Source: Patescibacteria group bacterium (GTDB lineage Bacteria; Patescibacteriota; Minisyncoccia; Minisyncoccales; GWA2-38-27). From it: a stretch of DNA of 64,000 bases. The DNA is taken from NCBI GenBank assembly GCA_020148045.1, contig JAHCRG010000003.1, positions 34,087 through 98,086 on the forward strand. Reading direction: 5' to 3'. Position numbers and translations under genes: made by a program. Positions within the stretch are counted from its first letter, which is position 1, and the number at the start of each line of letters is the position of its first letter. Below, piece by piece: positions 3,555 to 64,000 of the stretch. The notes beneath the pieces were generated by a model, which worked only from the letters and a program-made list of their open reading frames with translations, made no database searches and was not told the DNA's origin.

Positions 3555-4297
3555 ACAAAGGTAAAATATATATCGGTACTTCTGGGTGGGTTTATCGCCA
3601 CTGGGAAAATATTTTCTATCCAGAAAGCCTGTCTTCAAAAGATAAACTAAAATACTTTTCTCAACATCTTAAAACAACTGAAGTAAACTATTCTTTTTAT
3701 CGTCTGCCAAGACCGAGTACTTATCAAAATTGGTACTCCCAAACGCCGGGAGATTTTTTATTTACTGTAAAGGCAAGTCGTTTCATTACCCATATTAAGA
3801 GATTGAAAGATGTTAAGGAGCCCTGGAAAATATTTATTAAAAATGCTCTGAATCTTAAAGAAAAGCTCGGCCCAATTTTATTTCAATTCCCTCCTTCTTT
3901 TAAAGCAACTGAAGAAAATATAAAAAGATTAGAAGAATTTTTAAAGTTTATTCGCAAAAATAACAAAAAATTACGATTTGCTTTTGAGTTTCGTCATAAA
4001 ACCTGGTGCGAAGAGAAAATTTACAAACTTTTAAAAAAACATAGAGTTGCTTGGGTAATTGCTGATTCTCCTTCTTTCCCCAGAGCTGAAAAAATAACTG
4101 CTGATTTTGTCTATATCAGAATGCACGGGTCTAAAGTTTTATTCTCTTCAAAATATACAAAAAAGGAATTAAAGGATTTAGCTGAAAAAATCAAAAAGTG
4201 GAAGAGAAATAAAGATGTCTTTGTCTATTTCAACAACGATGCCCACGGCCACGCAATTGAGAATGCCAAAACCTTAAGAGGATTTTTAGGTAAATAG
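3551..4297 (+). CDS. DUF72 (YecE-like) family protein
   Basis: N-terminal IYIGTSGWVYRHWENIFYP is the DUF72 signature. Confidence 0.7.
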   Translation: MNKGKIYIGTSGWVYRHWENIFYPESLSSKDKLKYFSQHLKTTEVNYSFYRLPRPSTYQNWYSQTPGDFLFTVKASRFITHIKRLKDVKEPWKIFIKNALNLKEKLGPILFQFPPSFKATEENIKRLEEFLKFIRKNNKKLRFAFEFRHKTWCEEKIYKLLKKHRVAWVIADSPSFPRAEKITADFVYIRMHGSKVLFSSKYTKKELKDLAEKIKKWKRNKDVFVYFNNDAHGHAIENAKTLRGFLGK

Positions 4298-6409: not shown

Positions 6410-7030
6410 ATGTTTAAAACTCTTAACAAAGTTGTAAAAGTAATGGTTTTTTCTGATTTGGTTTTGAATTCTGGCTGGGGCTTGGTTGGCCCAATTTTAG
6501 CTATTTATATTGTAGGAAGCATTCAGGGAGGAAACGTTAAAGTGGCTGGAATTGCTATGGGAGTTTACTGGTTGGGCAAATCAATTCTCCAAATACCATT
6601 TTCTCATTATTTAGACGAGAATCATGGAGAGAAAGACGATTATTATGCCTTATTTGGAGGAACTCTTCTGGCTAGCCTTACTCCGATTGGCTTTATTTTT
6701 GCCACATTGCCCTGGCATATATATGTTCTCCAAGGAGTCCATGCCGTAGGTATGGCTCTGGCTATTCCTTCTTGGTCAGCTATTTTCACTCGCCATATTG
6801 AGAAAAAAAGAGAGGCCTTTTGCTGGGGCTTAGACAGTTCTGCTATTGGGCTTGGAGCGGGAGTAGCTGCAATTTTAGGAGGAGCAATAGCTGAGATTTT
6901 CGGATTTATTCCTCTTTTTATTGGGGTGAGCGCTTTTGGAATAGTAGCTTCCTTTTTGTTTTTACTAATTAGAAAAGAAATTTTGCCGAAAGTGCCAGAA
7001 GAAAGAGTATTCCCAATGCCAAAACCATGA
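6410..7030 (+). CDS. 6-TM half-size MFS-like transporter, paralog B
   Basis: About 45% identical to the preceding ORF, with the same loop motif (HYLDENHGEKDD). Confidence 0.45.
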   Translation: MFKTLNKVVKVMVFSDLVLNSGWGLVGPILAIYIVGSIQGGNVKVAGIAMGVYWLGKSILQIPFSHYLDENHGEKDDYYALFGGTLLASLTPIGFIFATLPWHIYVLQGVHAVGMALAIPSWSAIFTRHIEKKREAFCWGLDSSAIGLGAGVAAILGGAIAEIFGFIPLFIGVSAFGIVASFLFLLIRKEILPKVPEERVFPMPKP

Positions 7031-11575: not shown

Positions 11576-12085
11576 CTATTTTTTGGAAATAATCATTGTT
11601 AATCCTCTTGGTTGTCTTTTTAATTCTCTTTCAATTTTTATTGGAATTGACTTTTCTAATGCCTCAAGAAATTTTTTTATTTTTTCTTTAGCAAAATCTT
11701 GATGTGCTTTTTCTCTTCCTCTCAATTTCATCTCTATTCTAACCTTATATCCTGACTTTAAAAATTTTTCTGTTTGTCTGACTCTTGTTTCTAAATCGTG
11801 TTCAGAAATTCCAAAAGTTAATCTTATTCCTTTAAGTAAGCTTATCCGGTGATCTTTAGCTGATTTTTCTTTCTTTTTCAGTTGATAAAGATATTTTCCA
11901 TAGTCCATTAGTTTACAAACAGGCGGCTCAACTTTTTCTGTAACCTGGATTAAATCGAAACCGCGCTCCCTTGCTATTTGGAGCGCTTTTGTTAATACCA
12001 AAACTCCCAGTTGTTTTCCAGCTTCATCAATCACCCTTACTTCTCTGGCCCTTATTCGATTGTTGACTAATGGTTTTCTTTGCAC
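11576..12085 (-). CDS. infC: translation initiation factor IF-3 (GTG start)
   Basis: N- and C-domain motifs (IRAREVRVIDEAGKQLGVL…); upstream of rpmI-rplT. Confidence 0.85.
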   Translation of the reverse strand: MQRKPLVNNRIRAREVRVIDEAGKQLGVLVLTKALQIARERGFDLIQVTEKVEPPVCKLMDYGKYLYQLKKKEKSAKDHRISLLKGIRLTFGISEHDLETRVRQTEKFLKSGYKVRIEMKLRGREKAHQDFAKEKIKKFLEALEKSIPIKIERELKRQPRGLTMIISKK

Positions 12086-12086
12086 T

Positions 12087-12425
12087 GTGGAGATGGCGAG
12101 GGTGAACTCGCGTCCAAAAGTTTTGCCAAAATAGTTCTACAGATTTAGTCTGTTTTAATTTTCAGATACCAAGCAAGAAACAGACAAAATCTTAGTATCT
12201 TATCCTCGTTTGTTTCAATAATTCCCTTGAGGAAGAAAATTATCTATCTCGCGATTATAACGCCAAAGATTGCTTAGCGAGAATCAGTAATCCCGACGGC
12301 GTTAAGCAAATGCTAACGCAGGTTTCTTAAATAAGTTAGCACTTATTTTTTCTGGAAGTTTTACCAGATTCCAAGCTGGAACTGCTTTATCCTGACAAAA
12401 ACTTCTGTCAAAACTTTTCATCCCC
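12087..12425 (-). ncRNA. ssrA: tmRNA (SsrA); predicted tag peptide ANLFKKPALAFA
   Basis: Minus-strand transcript begins GGGGAUGAAAAG… and ends …GGACGCGAGUUCACCCUCGCCAUCUCCAC. The 5' GGGGAUG pairs with 3' CAUCUCC to form the acceptor stem, and a T-arm GCGAG-UUCACCC-CUCGC is present. An internal ORF GCU AAC UUA UUU AAG AAA CCU GCG UUA GCA UUU GCU UAA is present. The gene lies immediately downstream of smpB. Confidence 0.75.
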
Positions 12426-29524: not shown

Positions 29525-30760
29525 ATGTTTACTTCATGCAAATGGCCTCAATTAATAACTTGCAAACAAAGCAGTAAATTAACAATGCCGTTACTTGTAT
29601 TGCTTGCCATCTTTCTATTCGGCCGATCGGCCGAGGCACAATACGGCGGCGGCACCGGAGACCCCAGTGACCCTTACCTGATTTACACGGCCGAGCAGGT
29701 GAATGCAATTGGGGCCGAGCCCAACGATTGGGACAGGCACTTTAAGCTCATGGCAGATATTGATTTGAGCGGCGTTACGGGAACAGATTTTAACATCATC
29801 GGATACTATCGAACTTGGCAAGACCACAAGCCATTTACCGGCGTTTTTGACGGCAGCGGCAAGATAATCTCAAACTTCAGCTACACTTCTACGGATACAG
29901 ACTACATAGGACTTTTCGGGTACGTTATGGGAGGAAATGCAGTAATTAAGGATTTGGGATTGATTGACCCAAATATTGATGCGGGAACAGGAAATTGCGT
30001 TGGCTCGCTGGTCGCAATCAATATTGGCACAATCACCAACTGCTATGCCCAGGGCGGCAGCGTTTCTGGCAATGACGAAGTCGGCGGCCTGGTGGGATGG
30101 AATAAGTGGAGAACAATCTCCGACTGCTATTCAACCAGCTACGTTTCGGGAAATTGGCGTGTCGGCGGCCTGGCGGGATTCAATGATTGTGCCCCAATCA
30201 CCAACTGCTATTCAACCGGCAGCGTTTCAGGAACAACAGATGTCGGCGGCCTGGTGGGAAATAATGAGGGCACAATCACCAACTGCTATTCAACCAGCTA
30301 TGTTTTGGGAAATCGGCGTGTCGGTGGCCTTGTGGGAGAAAATGGGTACGAAGGCTACTTGGGGAGCACATATGGTACGATATCCAACTGCTATTCGAGC
30401 GGCAGCGTTTTGGGAGATGGTTATGTCGGAGGCCTGGCGGGATATAATCGTTCTGGCACAATCATCAACTGCTATTCAACCAGCTACGTTTCGGGAGATA
30501 GTTATGTCGGTGGCCTGGTGGGAGAAAATTTTTGGGGTGGTGAGGTTATGGCTTCTTTCTGGGATATTGAAACCAGCGGACAGACAGCGAGTGCTGGGAC
30601 GGGTAAAACAACGGCCGAGATGCAGACCGAGAGCACGTTTTCTGATGCTGGCTGGGATTTTCTAGTCGAGAGCGTAAATGGCACCGAGGATATCTGGTGG
30701 ATTCTCGAAGGTCAGGATTATCCCCGGCTGAGTTGGGAGCTCATCGGAGACGGCTCGTAG
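29525..30760 (+). CDS. secreted GLUG-motif repeat protein (GC-rich)
   Basis: Signal-peptide-like MPLLVLLAIFLFGRSAEA. About six tandem ~27-aa repeats TI(T/S)NCYS…V(S/L)G…VGGL(V/A)G, the GLUG motif. GC content is far above flanking DNA. Confidence 0.65.
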   Translation: MFTSCKWPQLITCKQSSKLTMPLLVLLAIFLFGRSAEAQYGGGTGDPSDPYLIYTAEQVNAIGAEPNDWDRHFKLMADIDLSGVTGTDFNIIGYYRTWQDHKPFTGVFDGSGKIISNFSYTSTDTDYIGLFGYVMGGNAVIKDLGLIDPNIDAGTGNCVGSLVAINIGTITNCYAQGGSVSGNDEVGGLVGWNKWRTISDCYSTSYVSGNWRVGGLAGFNDCAPITNCYSTGSVSGTTDVGGLVGNNEGTITNCYSTSYVLGNRRVGGLVGENGYEGYLGSTYGTISNCYSSGSVLGDGYVGGLAGYNRSGTIINCYSTSYVSGDSYVGGLVGENFWGGEVMASFWDIETSGQTASAGTGKTTAEMQTESTFSDAGWDFLVESVNGTEDIWWILEGQDYPRLSWELIGDGS

Positions 30761-30794
30761 CTATTCATAGCTACGGTTGTTGCCAACAGCAAGA

Positions 30795-30961
30795 GTAAAC
30801 CAAAGTAAAGGGGAATATCCCTACGGCTATAAAGCGCTTCTTATCTTAACGGAGCGCTTTTTCACTTGTTAAAAAACTTGACAGAAATTTATGGGTTTGG
30901 TAATGTAGGCAATCAAAGACTGTTTTTTTAACAAGTGAATATGGATATAGAATTTCAGAAA
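30795..30961 (+). repeat. 168-bp direct repeat copy 2 (terminator + promoter TTGACA-17-TAATGT + 5' UTR)
   Basis: See copy 1. Hairpin 30833-30861; TTGACA 30878-30883. Confidence 0.85.
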
Positions 30962-30977
30962 TCAGAAAGGAGAAAAA

Positions 30978-31823
30978 ATGATTAGCAAACAAACAAATAC
31001 AATCAGAATCTTGGTAGTAGCCTGTTTGATTTTATGTTGTCTCTATCTTATTGGTGTTGTGAGAAGAGAGGCAAGGGCGTTAAATTTACGCAACGTGACC
31101 GACAGTCTTATTTTGTCTATTGAGTTTACGACTGAGCCAGGTATGGATTATATTCAGGCTAAAGCTGATTATGTGGAGATATTATATAAATATGTCAGAC
31201 ACATGGAGAATCGGCATATACCCTTGTTGTTTTTCTTTTCAAGGAGTAATATTGCGGGAGACCTGAAACGTGTAGTGAGGGATTTGGAAAAAGCCGATGA
31301 ACTAAACGCTCGTGAGGCTATAGAAAAGGCTTCAGAAGCAATCGCTGAATTTTTCACCAAAACGAAGCCGTTCACAGATGAATCAATTATTACCTTTGAA
31401 TCCGAAGTTATATCTGAGGAAATACAAACTGCTATCAAGGATTCGCTTCAGGAAGCGCATGAGAAAGCAGAGACATGTGCCAATGATTCAAATGTGGCTA
31501 ATTTTGAAGCGCTATATCGGGCCAACAGAAAAGCGATAGTTTATTTGTACCTTGCTCGTTTTGAGTATCAAGAAATCGTTGATGAAGAAAAACTTAGAAC
31601 GTTTCGAACAGATCTAAACGCGACTTGCTATCGGAACGAGGCTTTGCAAGATTCTGATACCGTGGAAATCAGTGAGGAAGAGTGTTCGCGGCTTACTGTA
31701 TATTATGGTAGCGAGCTTCGCCGTCTTGGGATTTTGTATGCGATCATAGACAATAATATACAGCAAGCTTATGATTTATTACAAACAGAAATGGCTGCAA
31801 GAAAAGCTATCCCCGATATTTAA
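30978..31823 (+). CDS. membrane-anchored hypothetical protein (281 aa, GC-rich)
   Basis: RBS AAAGGAGAAAAAATG, one N-terminal TM, acidic helical rest; driven by repeat copy 2. Confidence 0.4.
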   Translation: MISKQTNTIRILVVACLILCCLYLIGVVRREARALNLRNVTDSLILSIEFTTEPGMDYIQAKADYVEILYKYVRHMENRHIPLLFFFSRSNIAGDLKRVVRDLEKADELNAREAIEKASEAIAEFFTKTKPFTDESIITFESEVISEEIQTAIKDSLQEAHEKAETCANDSNVANFEALYRANRKAIVYLYLARFEYQEIVDEEKLRTFRTDLNATCYRNEALQDSDTVEISEEECSRLTVYYGSELRRLGILYAIIDNNIQQAYDLLQTEMAARKAIPDI

Positions 31824-40579: not shown

Positions 40580-40626
40580 TTTATTCCTCGCTTTCAAGTA
40601 TAAAGTTTTTAACGTTCTATTTTTTG

Positions 40627-40710
40627 TGCCTGGGGTGGGACTCGAACCCACATGAGATTGCTCTCACATCGTTTTGAGCGATGCGCGTAAACCAATTCCG
40701 CCACCCAGGC
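40627..40710 (-). tRNA. tRNA-Leu (anticodon CAA), type II with long variable arm
   Basis: GCCTGGG acceptor pairs with CCCAGGC. D-loop GGAATTGGTTTA. Anticodon stem CATCG/CGATG with loop CTCAAAA. Variable arm TGAGAgcaaTCTCA. T-arm GTGGG-TTCGAGT-CCCAC. Discriminator A. Confidence 0.85.
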
Positions 40711-62518: not shown

Positions 62519-62698
62519 ATGGATGCAATATTTGATAAAGAAGGAAATTGTTTAAGGTGTAAAGGAACAAACAAGTGTATTAGTTGCAGAGGTAGTGGTA
62601 GGAATAGGTTTGATGAAAAACTTGTTTGTCCAACATGCAAAGGTAGTGGGAAATGCAATCATTCCCAAAACCCAAAGGTAAAGCCCCTGATGAAATAA
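62519..62698 (+). CDS. small DnaJ-type zinc-finger protein (59 aa, 4 x CxxCxGxG-like)
   Basis: RBS AAAAGGAGTTAAAGATGG; CLRCKGTN / CISCRGSG / CPTCKGSG / KCNHS; flanked by terminators at 62459-62490 and 62681-62712. Confidence 0.5.
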   Translation: MDAIFDKEGNCLRCKGTNKCISCRGSGRNRFDEKLVCPTCKGSGKCNHSQNPKVKPLMK

Positions 62699-62828
62699 CC
62701 AGGGGCTTTTTTAATTGACAAATTTTTTATTAAAATGTATAATTAAAATACAAATTTACGAATTAAAACTGCTCTTTTAAAACAAGAAAGGAGGTGAATA
62801 TGGATTGATTCTGATAATATAAGCCATA

Positions 62829-63032
62829 ATGGCAGTGAGACCCAGAAGAATTCTGCGAGCCAAGGGAAGATTGAAACCCAATCATGTGTATGCGAGCCAG
62901 TCAGAAAATGAAACCCAAAGGGACGTTGCGAGCCAAAACTCCATTGAAACCCAAAGTAATTTTGCGAGCCACGACAAGAATGAAACCCAACATATTATTG
63001 CGAAAATTTCGCAGAAGGGAGAATTGAAATGA
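62829..63032 (+). CDS. possible repeat-encoded small protein, translationally coupled (ATGA overlap) to the downstream ORF
   Basis: Basic N-terminus plus 12-aa repeats. The stop TGA overlaps the next ATG. Confidence 0.25.
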   Translation: MAVRPRRILRAKGRLKPNHVYASQSENETQRDVASQNSIETQSNFASHDKNETQHIIAKISQKGELK

Positions 63033-63036
63033 AAGA
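62855..63036 (+). repeat. 36-bp tandem repeat x ~5 (GCGAGCCA-N11-TGAAACCCAA-N8)
   Basis: Unit starts at 62855, 62892, 62928, 62964 and 63000. Conserved 9-bp and 10-bp blocks separated by variable segments. Overlaps a 67-aa ORF (62829..63032) with 12-aa repeats ASQxxxETQxxx. Confidence 0.8.
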
Positions 63037-64000
63037 ATCAAAAAAAGATAGCCGAGTAATTAGTGAAATTGGAAGAACAATTGCAGGAGGATACGCTGAC
63101 CATCAGGATGTGCGTAAAAGTACGATGAATAGGATTCGCAGCTTGGTGCGTCATATCAGCGAGGGTATTCCCTTTGACCAACCAGAAGAAAAGAAAGAAG
63201 AAAGAACCTTTGATAGTAAGTACAGGGATGGTAATCTTTTAAAGCTTATTGAGATGATGTTTGCTCAAGGTAAAATAACCAAAGAGGAAAGTGATTATCT
63301 AAGTAAAGCCCTAGAGCTTGCCAAAAAGGCCTTATCACTGGAACAGAGCCACAAAGGTCCGATGAGAATTTTCATTTTAGCTGAGCCAGTATGGAAAGAA
63401 TTTCTTTCTCATGTCCCTGGTATTGGTGGGGTACTTGCTTCAAATTTAATCGCTAAGTTTGCTAACTGCGAGCGCTACGATAGAGTATCGTCTTTATGGA
63501 GGCATTGTGGTTTGCACCTGATATGTCCTGAGTGCGTTGAGGAGACTGAAGATAAAATTCTACCTGTTCCTGCCAATGTTAACGGCAAGTGCCCAAAATG
63601 TGGCAAGCAAGGGGTAGCTCCTAGAAGAAAGAAAGGCCGGAGGAATGATTATGATGGCCGGTTGAAGACGTTTGCCTGGAATATCGCTGACTGTTTGATA
63701 AAAAAGAAGTCACCTGTATACTACGAGATATACCTCAAAGAGAAAGAACGTCAGCTTAACCGGAGATTTAGTCGGGGCCAGCTTCAAAGAAATTATGGAA
63801 AACCCTATAAGAAAAGTGATACTACCTTGAAATTACTCCATGCTCACAACAGAGCCCGGCGCAAGATGGTCAAGATTTTCCTCCAGCATTACTGGGTGGC
63901 CTCCAGGGAACTGGCAGGGTTGTCAGTAATCGGACCTTATGTAAAAGACAAGCTTGAGCATGAGGACATTGTTACCTGGAGAGATGTCTTGAAGGCCAAT
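63029..64000 (+). CDS. GC-rich ORF (3' end lies outside the window) with an HhH domain resembling the IS110-family transposase C-terminal (Transposase_20) domain plus a CPEC…CPKC zinc ribbon, but no DEDD N-domain
   Basis: LSHVPGIGGVLASNLIAKFANCERYDRVSSLWRHCGLH compares with IS110 LLSVPGIGPLTASALVAEIGDISRF…LAAYAGLTP. Downstream G…RRKKGRR…YDGRLKTFAWNIA…VYYEIYL. The N-terminal 130 aa are unrelated to the DEDD domain. Runs off the window end. Confidence 0.4.
   Translation, partial: MKESKKDSRVISEIGRTIAGGYADHQDVRKSTMNRIRSLVRHISEGIPFDQPEEKKEERTFDSKYRDGNLLKLIEMMFAQGKITKEESDYLSKALELAKKALSLEQSHKGPMRIFILAEPVWKEFLSHVPGIGGVLASNLIAKFANCERYDRVSSLWRHCGLHLICPECVEETEDKILPVPANVNGKCPKCGKQGVAPRRKKGRRNDYDGRLKTFAWNIADCLIKKKSPVYYEIYLKEKERQLNRRFSRGQLQRNYGKPYKKSDTTLKLLHAHNRARRKMVKIFLQHYWVASRELAGLSVIGPYVKDKLEHEDIVTWRDVLKAN

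Follow-up and report, generated by a model that had tools for sequence, protein, structure and literature searches.

The 64,000-nucleotide (nt) stretch of Patescibacteria group bacterium contig JAHCRG010000003.1 (GenBank assembly GCA_020148045.1, positions 34,087 to 98,086) that is analyzed here, hereafter the window, ends with a tandem array of 36-base-pair (bp) repeats followed by an open reading frame (ORF) that extends a few codons beyond the window. The repeats and the neighboring gene appear to constitute a dual-repeat TIGR-TasA system located on the chromosome of a member of the Patescibacteria (candidate phyla radiation, CPR), an assignment to which we give a probability of close to nine in ten. 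Three hallmarks of TIGR-Tas systems are found at this locus, namely, a Tas protein with an RNA-binding Nop domain (NCBIfam family NF052498, with sequence and fold matches to TasR and TasH in the PDB); an adjoining array in which two different 9-nt repeats alternate, separated by 9-nt spacers, to give a unit of 36 nt; and the presence of box D (UG) at the start and box C (CCA) at the end of both the edge repeat TGCGAGCCA and the loop repeat TGAAACCCA. The hallmark of the TasA subtype, the absence of an N-terminal RuvC or HNH nuclease domain, is observed as well. The locus is a clear further case of a family first reported in 2025 and does not represent a novel type of element. The features of the locus are listed in Table 1.

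The dual-repeat array upstream of tasA

Tandem Repeats Finder detects a period of 36 nt in 4.3 copies at positions 62836-62990, and the pattern AGCCA-N9/10-TGRRAYCCA-N9/10-TGCG yields five matches that tile positions 62822-63002 without gaps, compared to 0.00 matches expected by chance (100 dinucleotide-preserving shuffles). The five tandem units of 36-37 bp reported in an earlier, first-pass annotation of this DNA are therefore real, and so is its association of the array with the downstream ORF. Each unit consists of a 9-nt edge repeat TGCGAGCCA, a 9-nt spacer A, a 9-nt loop repeat TGAAACCCA and a 9-nt spacer B; the variable segments of 11 and 8 nt described previously refer to the same array, but with the boundaries cut differently from the actual 9/9/9/9 layout. 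The edge repeat occurs four times in the 64-kb window, always within the array (0.09 expected), and the loop repeat is found four times in the array and once elsewhere in the window (0.67 expected). The loop repeat of the first unit (tigRNA 0 in Table 1) is TGAGACCCA instead of TGAAACCCA, and spacer B of unit 1 (tigRNA 1) comprises 10 nt, which brings the latter unit to 37 nt. The array begins with the truncated repeat TATAAGCCA and ends with TGCGA, followed by the ribosome-binding site of tasA.

TIGR arrays have been described as containing two distinct, alternating repeats of 8-12 nt and spacers of approximately 9 nt that give rise to 36-nt tigRNAs (Faure et al., Science 2025, PMC12045711). 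The TasR structure shows each repeat opening with UG (box D) and closing with CCA (box C), an A-rich loop repeat, and one additional G-C pair within the edge repeat. The same properties are recognizable here: TG and CCA occupy the two ends of either repeat, the loop repeat is rich in A, and the additional G-C pair can form in the edge repeat. Furthermore, neither the edge nor the loop repeat differs by a single letter from its counterpart in the TaTasR and ParTasR arrays (Faure 2025, Tables S1 and S3), and the first repeat shares the '..TAAGCCA' form with both TaTasR arrays. The tigRNA boundaries in Table 1 were derived from the template used for in vitro transcription of TaTasR tigRNA1, (G)AGCCA-N9-TGAAACCCA-N9-TGCG, a form that places the processing site between TGCG and AGCCA and hence predicts five tigRNAs.

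In agreement with the first-pass annotation, a CRISPR array can be excluded, given that two different 9-nt repeats with 9-nt spacers are present instead of a single 25-36-nt repeat alternating with spacers of similar length. The genes directly upstream of the array, the only immediate neighbors considered as potential cas genes, encode a glycosyltransferase and an HtrA-like protease. No Rfam family was detected over the array, by either E-value or gathering thresholds.

The tasA gene and its product

The reading frame of tasA is preceded by an in-frame stop, the TGA of the last loop repeat (62981-62983), with no other start codon before position 63029. The overlap by ATGA between the array and the gene, noticed previously, has a simple source: an ORF that spans positions 62829-63032 does end with ATGA over the start at 63029, but this ORF is not a gene, and the overlap results from a TGA that lies within the ATG-AAA start of tasA itself. 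The description of tasA as GC-rich applies only in relative terms (42.6% G+C vs approximately 35% in the window). The product of tasA is 100% identical to the 330-amino-acid (aa) protein MBZ9577505.1, labeled in GenBank as a hypothetical protein of a Patescibacteria bacterium, so that the complete protein could be obtained, as proposed in the first-pass annotation; the final six residues are encoded outside the window. In the portions of the Faure 2025 supplements covered here, MBZ9577505 (locus tag KJA13) is not among the listed entries.

The tasA product matches the TIGR-Tas family model NF052498 over profile positions 4-215 of 215 (E = 5.6e-43, 147.4 bits vs a cutoff of 100). A match of the full-length protein to a characterized family was the outcome that the first-pass annotation had named as incompatible with its own proposals, and none of its three candidate readings (an iteron-like array with a recombinase-derived protein, a domesticated IS110 domain, or a repeat-encoded peptide) holds. 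The product name attached to NF052498, 'TIGR-Tas system RNA-guided endonuclease', is misleading for a member without a nuclease domain, and automatic annotation would overstate its activity. The top matches in a sequence search of the PDB are TasR (9mty, E = 3e-25) and TasH (E = 3e-13), and BLASTP against the sequences of Faure 2025 Table S1 shows 39% identity to the Nop domain of ParTasR (4e-34) and 26% identity to FpTasA over almost the full length (E = 3e-17). The AlphaFold2 model, built from an alignment of 95 homologues, has a pLDDT of 94.3 and a pTM of 0.90; Foldseek ranks as its closest structures TasR and TasH, followed by the IS110 recombinases IS621 and ISCro4, and then Nop5, Nop56/58 and Prp31, in agreement with the published relationships of the Tas family.

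The N-terminal part of the protein lacks DEDD or RuvC-like motifs, as stated in the first-pass annotation: there is no match to PF01548 (DEDD/RuvC-like) even at E <= 10, the Pfam and NCBIfam matches include no nuclease family, and the first ~110 aa are modeled as two long helices without strands. The coiled coil that these helices are predicted to form starts at residue 5 and leaves no room for a RuvC or HNH domain, which makes the protein a TasA under the published nomenclature; in TaTasR, the coiled coil corresponds to K109-H168 and has a 3-residue tip. Judging by its sequence and predicted structure, the protein is a TasA without a RuvC, HNH or DEDD domain. The resemblance to Transposase_20 noted previously reflects a real kinship with the C-terminal domain of IS110 transposases but is marginal (PF02371, 21.1 bits vs a cutoff of 21.3, aa 125-163 only). 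A degenerate IS110 transposase was rejected: the protein scores 15.8 bits against the IS110 family model NF033542, for which the cutoff is 140, compared to the above-cutoff score for the TIGR-Tas model.

Tyr304 and His311 align with Y289 and H296 of SpTasH, residues that process pre-tigRNA (PMC13421893), and the Tyr/His dyad has been reported as characteristic of dual-repeat systems. Among the 95 homologues, the first position is occupied by Tyr in 83, Phe in 8 and Trp in 3 proteins, and the second one by His in 94.

The protein also contains the zinc ribbon of the CxxC...CxxC type that was described in the first-pass annotation as an insertion. In TaTasR numbering, this 33-aa ribbon falls between residues 211 and 216, inside the wedge (G210-K230), and is predicted to fold into beta hairpins with a pLDDT above 94. 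The insertion is present in approximately 20 of the 95 homologues, those closest to the window protein, and 61 others have a 5-residue loop at this position. The word 'zinc' is absent from the main texts of three TIGR papers, and a literature search pairing 'tigRNA' with 'zinc' returned no Tas-related match.

Transcript organization, the second array and the genomic neighborhood

The promoter upstream of the array corresponds to the sigma-70 consensus (Table 1). Among eight related loci with flanking sequences (L003-L007 and L028-L030; protein identity 53-87%), the -35 element is retained in L003 and L004, and the full TTGACA-17-TATAAT promoter in L028. Between the promoter and the array lies a leader in which a Shine-Dalgarno (SD) sequence is followed by ATG, one codon and a stop, an arrangement that is found in five loci (the window, L003, L004, L005 and L028), with the SD sequence alone in L030; the upstream array of TaTasR is also preceded by ATGGATTGAT (Faure 2025 Table S1, PMC12045711). 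The leader may serve as a ribosome-binding stabilizer of the 5' end. Both arrays of the locus begin a few bases past a stop codon, that of the mini-ORF in the case of the upstream array and that of tasA in the case of the downstream array.

The second array becomes apparent in a public contig, L002 (1,586 nt, Logan), that is identical to window positions 62698-64000 and extends past the end of the window. Three bases after the tasA stop codon, it contains the truncated repeat TCTAAGCCA, six units, a truncated TGCG edge repeat and a terminator hairpin; these six further units have the same repeats as the upstream array and new spacers. The module order is array, tasA, array, a layout that has been documented for TIGR loci. 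The upstream array ends 25 nt before the tasA start codon, and there is no terminator in between; together with the consensus promoter, this organization suggests one transcript that extends from the promoter to the terminator past the second array. Judging from the layout, this single transcript probably comprises the leader, the five-unit array, tasA and the six-unit array.

The terminator hairpin AAAGCCCCTGATGAAATAACCAGGGGCTTT that precedes the promoter has a second copy after the downstream array, just beyond the window (L002 positions 1557-1586), and two Logan contigs break at the identical base of this sequence. In L006, the module is flanked by a 49-nt direct repeat with 96% identity (4214-4262 and 6774-6822). 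Relative to a ferredoxin gene, the module of L004 lies on one side and that of L005 on the other. The flanking repeats and the switch of the ferredoxin side suggest cassette-like insertion or excision, or else recombination between terminators.

The system adjoins the gene for the HtrA-like protease (htrA) in the window, L004, L005 and L030, and a glycosyltransferase gene precedes htrA in the window, L004 and L005. A 59-aa ORF at 62519-62698, immediately 5' of the system, contains four CxxC motifs and resembles the DnaJ CXXCXGXG zinc finger, although its score of 20.5 bits falls short of the cutoff; the equivalent upstream position in L006 is occupied by another, different small zinc-finger ORF. 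Elsewhere, the window carries a tmRNA gene (12085-12425, minus strand) and a tRNA-Leu(CAA) gene (40626-40710, minus strand). These RNA genes and the synteny of htrA point to a chromosomal context, which fits the published view of CPR bacteria as the known non-viral hosts of TIGR arrays. G+C content peaks at 30001-31000 (48% vs approximately 35% for the window), where no Rfam family reaches its gathering score.

Table 1. Predicted features of the TIGR-TasA locus (window coordinates)
Feature	Position	Strand	Sequence or remark
Terminator hairpin, direct repeat copy 1 (30 nt)	62680-62709	+	AAAGCCCCTGATGAAATAACCAGGGGCTTT; ends small zinc-finger ORF
Sigma-70-type consensus promoter	62715-62743	+	TTGACA-17 nt-TATAAT; 12/12 consensus positions
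Array leader	62787-62808	+	Shine-Dalgarno AAAGGAGGTG and two-codon mini-ORF ATG GAT TGA (62800-62808)
5'-truncated first edge repeat	62818-62826	+	TATAAGCCA
Predicted tigRNA 0	62822-62857	+	AGCCA / spacer A TAATGGCAG / loop TGAGACCCA / spacer B GAAGAATTC / TGCG
Predicted tigRNA 1, 37 nt	62858-62894	+	spacer A AGGGAAGAT, loop TGAAACCCA, spacer B ATCATGTGTA (10 nt)
Predicted tigRNA 2	62895-62930	+	spacer A GTCAGAAAA, spacer B AAGGGACGT
Predicted tigRNA 3	62931-62966	+	spacer A AAACTCCAT, spacer B AAGTAATTT
Predicted tigRNA 4	62967-63002	+	spacer A CGACAAGAA, spacer B ACATATTAT
3'-truncated edge repeat	62999-63003	+	TGCGA; inside palindrome TGCGAAAATTTCGCA (62999-63013)
tasA ribosome-binding site	63014-63022	+	GAAGGGAGA; 6 nt 5' of ATG, read from sequence
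tasA, nuclease-free TIGR-associated Nop-domain protein	63029-64000	+	aa 1-324 of 330 inside window
Coiled-coil (dimerization) hairpin, aa 5-107	63041-63349	+	model helices 5-45 and 85-107; extended tip ~aa 46-84
Zinc ribbon in wedge loop, aa 163-195	63515-63613	+	C166, C169, C188, C191 (CPEC...CPKC)
Predicted metal-independent pre-tigRNA processing dyad	63938-63961	+	Tyr304 (63938-63940) and His311 (63959-63961); aligned with SpTasH Y289/H296

Related loci and evolution of the arrays

The comparison with related strains that the first-pass annotation had suggested shows the same repeats with different spacers. All eight related loci contain the same edge repeat and close variants of the loop repeat (TGAAACCCA, TGAGACCCA and TGAAATCCA), and in each of them, arrays on the tasA strand flank the gene on both sides. 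When approximately 100 units of nine loci are compared, the repeats vary least at TG and CCA, and the center of the loop repeat varies, as expected from the TasR structure.

Close relatives (L003 and L004; L005 and L028) share some tas-proximal units, and L006 and L007, which encode the same protein, have downstream arrays that differ at the far end. In L029 (3908-4630), blocks of three units are repeated with point differences, and in the downstream array of L002 (1362-1478), units 1 and 3 are alike (GATATCTGT vs GATGTCTGT). The shared units, the repeated blocks and the differences between units indicate that the arrays change by gain and loss of units, segmental duplication and point mutation. 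Array change is faster than protein divergence. The segmental duplications and the shared tas-proximal units hint at growth of TIGR arrays through duplication and mutation, as opposed to acquisition of the CRISPR type. Beyond these loci, the scan of genome contigs matched a single contig, the archaeal L001, with 42% protein identity; the gene lies where this contig stops, and the portion of upstream sequence inspected contains no visible array.

The spacers of the window array, L002, L003-L007 and L028-L030 are purine-rich (A 38-40%, C 13-15%). SD-like 5-mers (GGAGG, AGGAG) are approximately 5-fold more frequent in the spacers than in the window background, and their complements are almost absent; compared to composition-matched shuffles, the enrichment is weak (P ~0.02, uncorrected for multiple tests). 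Hybrid stability or a preference for gene starts as targets may underlie this bias.

Proposed mechanism and alternative interpretations

The anatomy of the array, the family membership of the protein and its lack of a nuclease domain, the second array, and the conservation of the repeats combined with spacer turnover are direct observations. By analogy with the characterized systems, the promoter at 62715-62743 would drive the synthesis of one transcript that consists of the leader, the array, tasA, the second array and the intrinsic terminator. In the edge UGCGAGCCA and loop UGAAACCCA repeats, box D (UG) and box C (CCA) at the two ends would be recognized by a TasA dimer, and cleavage of every edge repeat between UGCG and AGCCA by the Tyr304/His311 dyad would release 36-nt tigRNAs with two 9-nt spacers each. 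The target would be a contiguous DNA site of 18 bp, in which spacer A base-pairs to one of the strands and spacer B to the opposite one, with no need for a protospacer adjacent motif. The absence of a nuclease domain in TasA leads one to expect binding and bending without cleavage, so the uncut target would be blocked in transcription or replication. FpTasA has been shown to bind processed 36-nt tigRNAs, and in a preprint, a CPR TasA and catalytically dead TasR were reported to cause RNA-guided, reversible transcriptional repression without DNA cleavage.

Several observations weigh against this interpretation, among them the results of the target searches. The target oligonucleotide of Faure 2025 (Table S3) defines the form of a target, one strand of which carries first spacer A and then spacer B in reverse complement, a geometry that agrees with the reported 8-nt 3' overhangs; an example of a predicted 18-bp site of this form is GTCAGAAAAACGTCCCTT. 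In the 64-kb window, with both orders of half-sites and gaps of 0-2 nt, the best matches have at least 3 mismatches, the level of shuffled spacers, and the 86 guide units of the related loci produce 3 matches at 2 mismatches to the DNA of the window and the loci compared here vs 4 for shuffled spacers. Exact scans of IMG/VR with three guides yielded 6, 1 and 6 matches, with 6 for the swapped-halves control and no recurring contig. The guides have no match to the leader or promoter of the system itself. These searches covered 64 kb of the source genome, and 18 nt is too short for database-wide target calling, as also pointed out by Faure 2025 (PMC12045711). Further, the TasA shown to repress transcription is MbTasA, a different protein with an array that could be of the dual-repeat or the stem-loop type. 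The Phe or Trp that replaces Tyr in 11 of the 95 relatives implies that the dyad may not be universally catalytic, and the zinc ribbon, for which there is no characterized counterpart, could change the way the wedge engages DNA. The locus itself is known from sequence alone, and its transcription, processing, DNA binding and repression are projected from the published work on relatives.

The alternative that survives best, although we consider it rather unlikely, is that TasA is only a targeting module and that a partner acting in trans (a host nuclease, a small zinc-finger protein or a ParB-like factor) cleaves, recombines, partitions or modifies the target, with the system serving in defense or in competition between elements instead of as a plain repressor. 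Non-cleaving interference, assistance to integrases and ParB association have all been raised for TasA (Faure 2025, PMC12045711); the small CxxC-rich ORF directly upstream of the system, with its counterpart in L006, would be a candidate partner, and turnover of spacers that is much faster than the divergence of the protein is expected of conflict systems. However, no partner gene is conserved, the neighbors being variable (Fer4, zinc-finger ORFs, htrA, a prenyltransferase), and TasA alone represses in published assays.

Considerably less probable is an inactive TIGR-Tas relic, which would account for the lack of identifiable targets in the window, the locus DNA and IMG/VR and for the degenerate repeats of the first unit. 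Against a relic, exact sequences are retained in all four full edge repeats and in four loop repeats out of five, tasA is intact with the core residues and the Tyr/His dyad conserved, the promoter is at consensus, and the system has been kept at the same chromosomal site in relatives with 58-78% identical TasA.

We find it very improbable that the array consists of iteron-like DNA sites for a domesticated protein with the IS110 C-terminal domain. The adjacency of the repeats to the gene, the marginal Transposase_20 similarity (21.1 vs 21.3 bits) and a predicted fold similar to that of IS621 (Foldseek E ~5e-3, TM-score ~0.35) are compatible with such a scenario, but the repeats are identical to RNA repeats that have been experimentally demonstrated to be transcribed, processed and bound by Tas. 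In addition, the variable segments are of a constant size, the 9 nt of guide spacers, arrays on the tasA strand (the only strand searched in the relatives) flank the gene in every locus, positioned 3' of the promoter or of the gene and with a terminator at the end, and the score of the protein against the IS110 family model falls far below the cutoff.

The remaining proposal, that the array encodes a repeat peptide (ASQxxxETQxxx) translationally coupled to the downstream ORF, can be dismissed for practical purposes: the 67-aa ORF at 62829-63032 indeed ends with ATGA over the tasA start, but a plus-strand frame (62884-63027) and a minus-strand frame (62901-63041) are open over the same DNA, as is to be expected by chance given that the repeats carry a stop in only one plus-strand frame and leave the other two free of stops; the peptide switches register from 'RAK..KPN' to 'ASQ..ETQ' at the 37-nt unit and has no Pfam or NCBIfam match, gene calls in homologous loci cross the arrays in other registers, and the downstream array follows a stop codon and has no start codon.

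Significance

TIGR-Tas systems have been known since 2025, the catalogued loci number in the thousands, and the NCBI family model already recognizes the window protein, so that the TIGR-TasA locus carries little weight as a discovery. What it offers is a clean, complete and compact TasA system from a non-viral CPR chromosome. It comprises a 330-aa protein and 11 guides, its repeats do not differ from those of the well-studied TaTasR and ParTasR guides, and syntenic relatives are available for comparison. This comparative set can be used to address two questions in the field, namely, gain and loss of TIGR spacers and the natural targets of nuclease-free TasA. The interest of the locus is modest and rests mainly on the zinc-ribbon variant of the wedge and on the comparative set for the study of array evolution.

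A more speculative and, in our estimate, improbable proposal is that the locus belongs to an undescribed subclade of chromosomal Patescibacteria TasA, which would be characterized by the wedge zinc ribbon, a conserved SD/mini-ORF leader that loads ribosomes, cassette-like behavior, arrays that grow by segmental duplication and point mutation, and purine-rich, SD-like spacers that point to regulation at host gene starts and not to defense. Should such a subclade exist, a zinc ribbon would have been grafted into the wedge loop, which keeps apart the two DNA strands as well as the two spacers; the loading of ribosomes at the 5' end of the guide transcript would serve stability or coupling to translation; and the cassette behavior would be manifest in the flanking direct repeats and the variable position relative to neighboring genes.

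Comparison with known systems

The TIGR-TasA locus of the window resembles, in overall organization, the dual-repeat FpTasA system of Flavonifractor plautii (PMC12045711), which encodes a solo Nop protein that consists of a coiled coil and a C-terminal domain, without a nuclease. In both systems, the gene is flanked by arrays with a period of 36 nt, in which edge and loop repeats take turns and the spacers measure 9 nt. The two systems differ in their repeat sequences, box C being CCN in FpTIGR, whereas both repeats end with CCA here, and in the 33-aa zinc ribbon of the wedge and the longer coiled-coil tip of the window protein. The repeats connect the locus to TaTasR and ParTasR (PDB 9mty), which have the same edge TGCGAGCCA and loop TGAAACCCA repeats and, in the TaTasR arrays, the same truncated first repeat; the C-terminal Nop domain is 39% identical to that of ParTasR, and TasR is the top PDB match by both sequence and fold. 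In contrast to these proteins, the window protein lacks the N-terminal RuvC domain, and accordingly, DNA cleavage is not expected; the zinc ribbon inserted between the equivalents of residues 211 and 216 further distinguishes it from TaTasR. SpTasH of Salicola phage CGphi29 aligns within the Nop domain (E = 3e-13), with Y289/H296 equivalent to Y304/H311, but the window protein lacks an HNH domain, box D of SpTIGR is AG, and the present locus resides on a CPR chromosome and not in a phage.

The more distant relationships extend to IS110 recombinases (IS621, ISCro4), which share the RNA-binding Nop-like/Transposase_20 domain (Foldseek E ~5e-3) and employ bridge RNAs that are likewise two-spacer guides flanked by box C/D-like motifs. 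Unlike IS110, the window protein has no DEDD domain, and its guides come from an array of 36-nt units instead of a single two-loop bridge RNA; in the published view, the Nop domain is common to Tas and IS110, and a different nuclease is fused to it in IS110. Finally, archaeal and eukaryotic box C/D small nucleolar ribonucleoproteins (Nop5, Nop56/58) similarly combine a coiled-coil dimer and a Nop domain with a box C/D RNA that contains two guide segments. The fold matches to these proteins are weak (E 0.4-0.9), and the predicted target of the TasA system is DNA as opposed to the rRNA recognized by the box C/D particles, the published partners of which are fibrillarin, L7Ae and a K-turn RNA.

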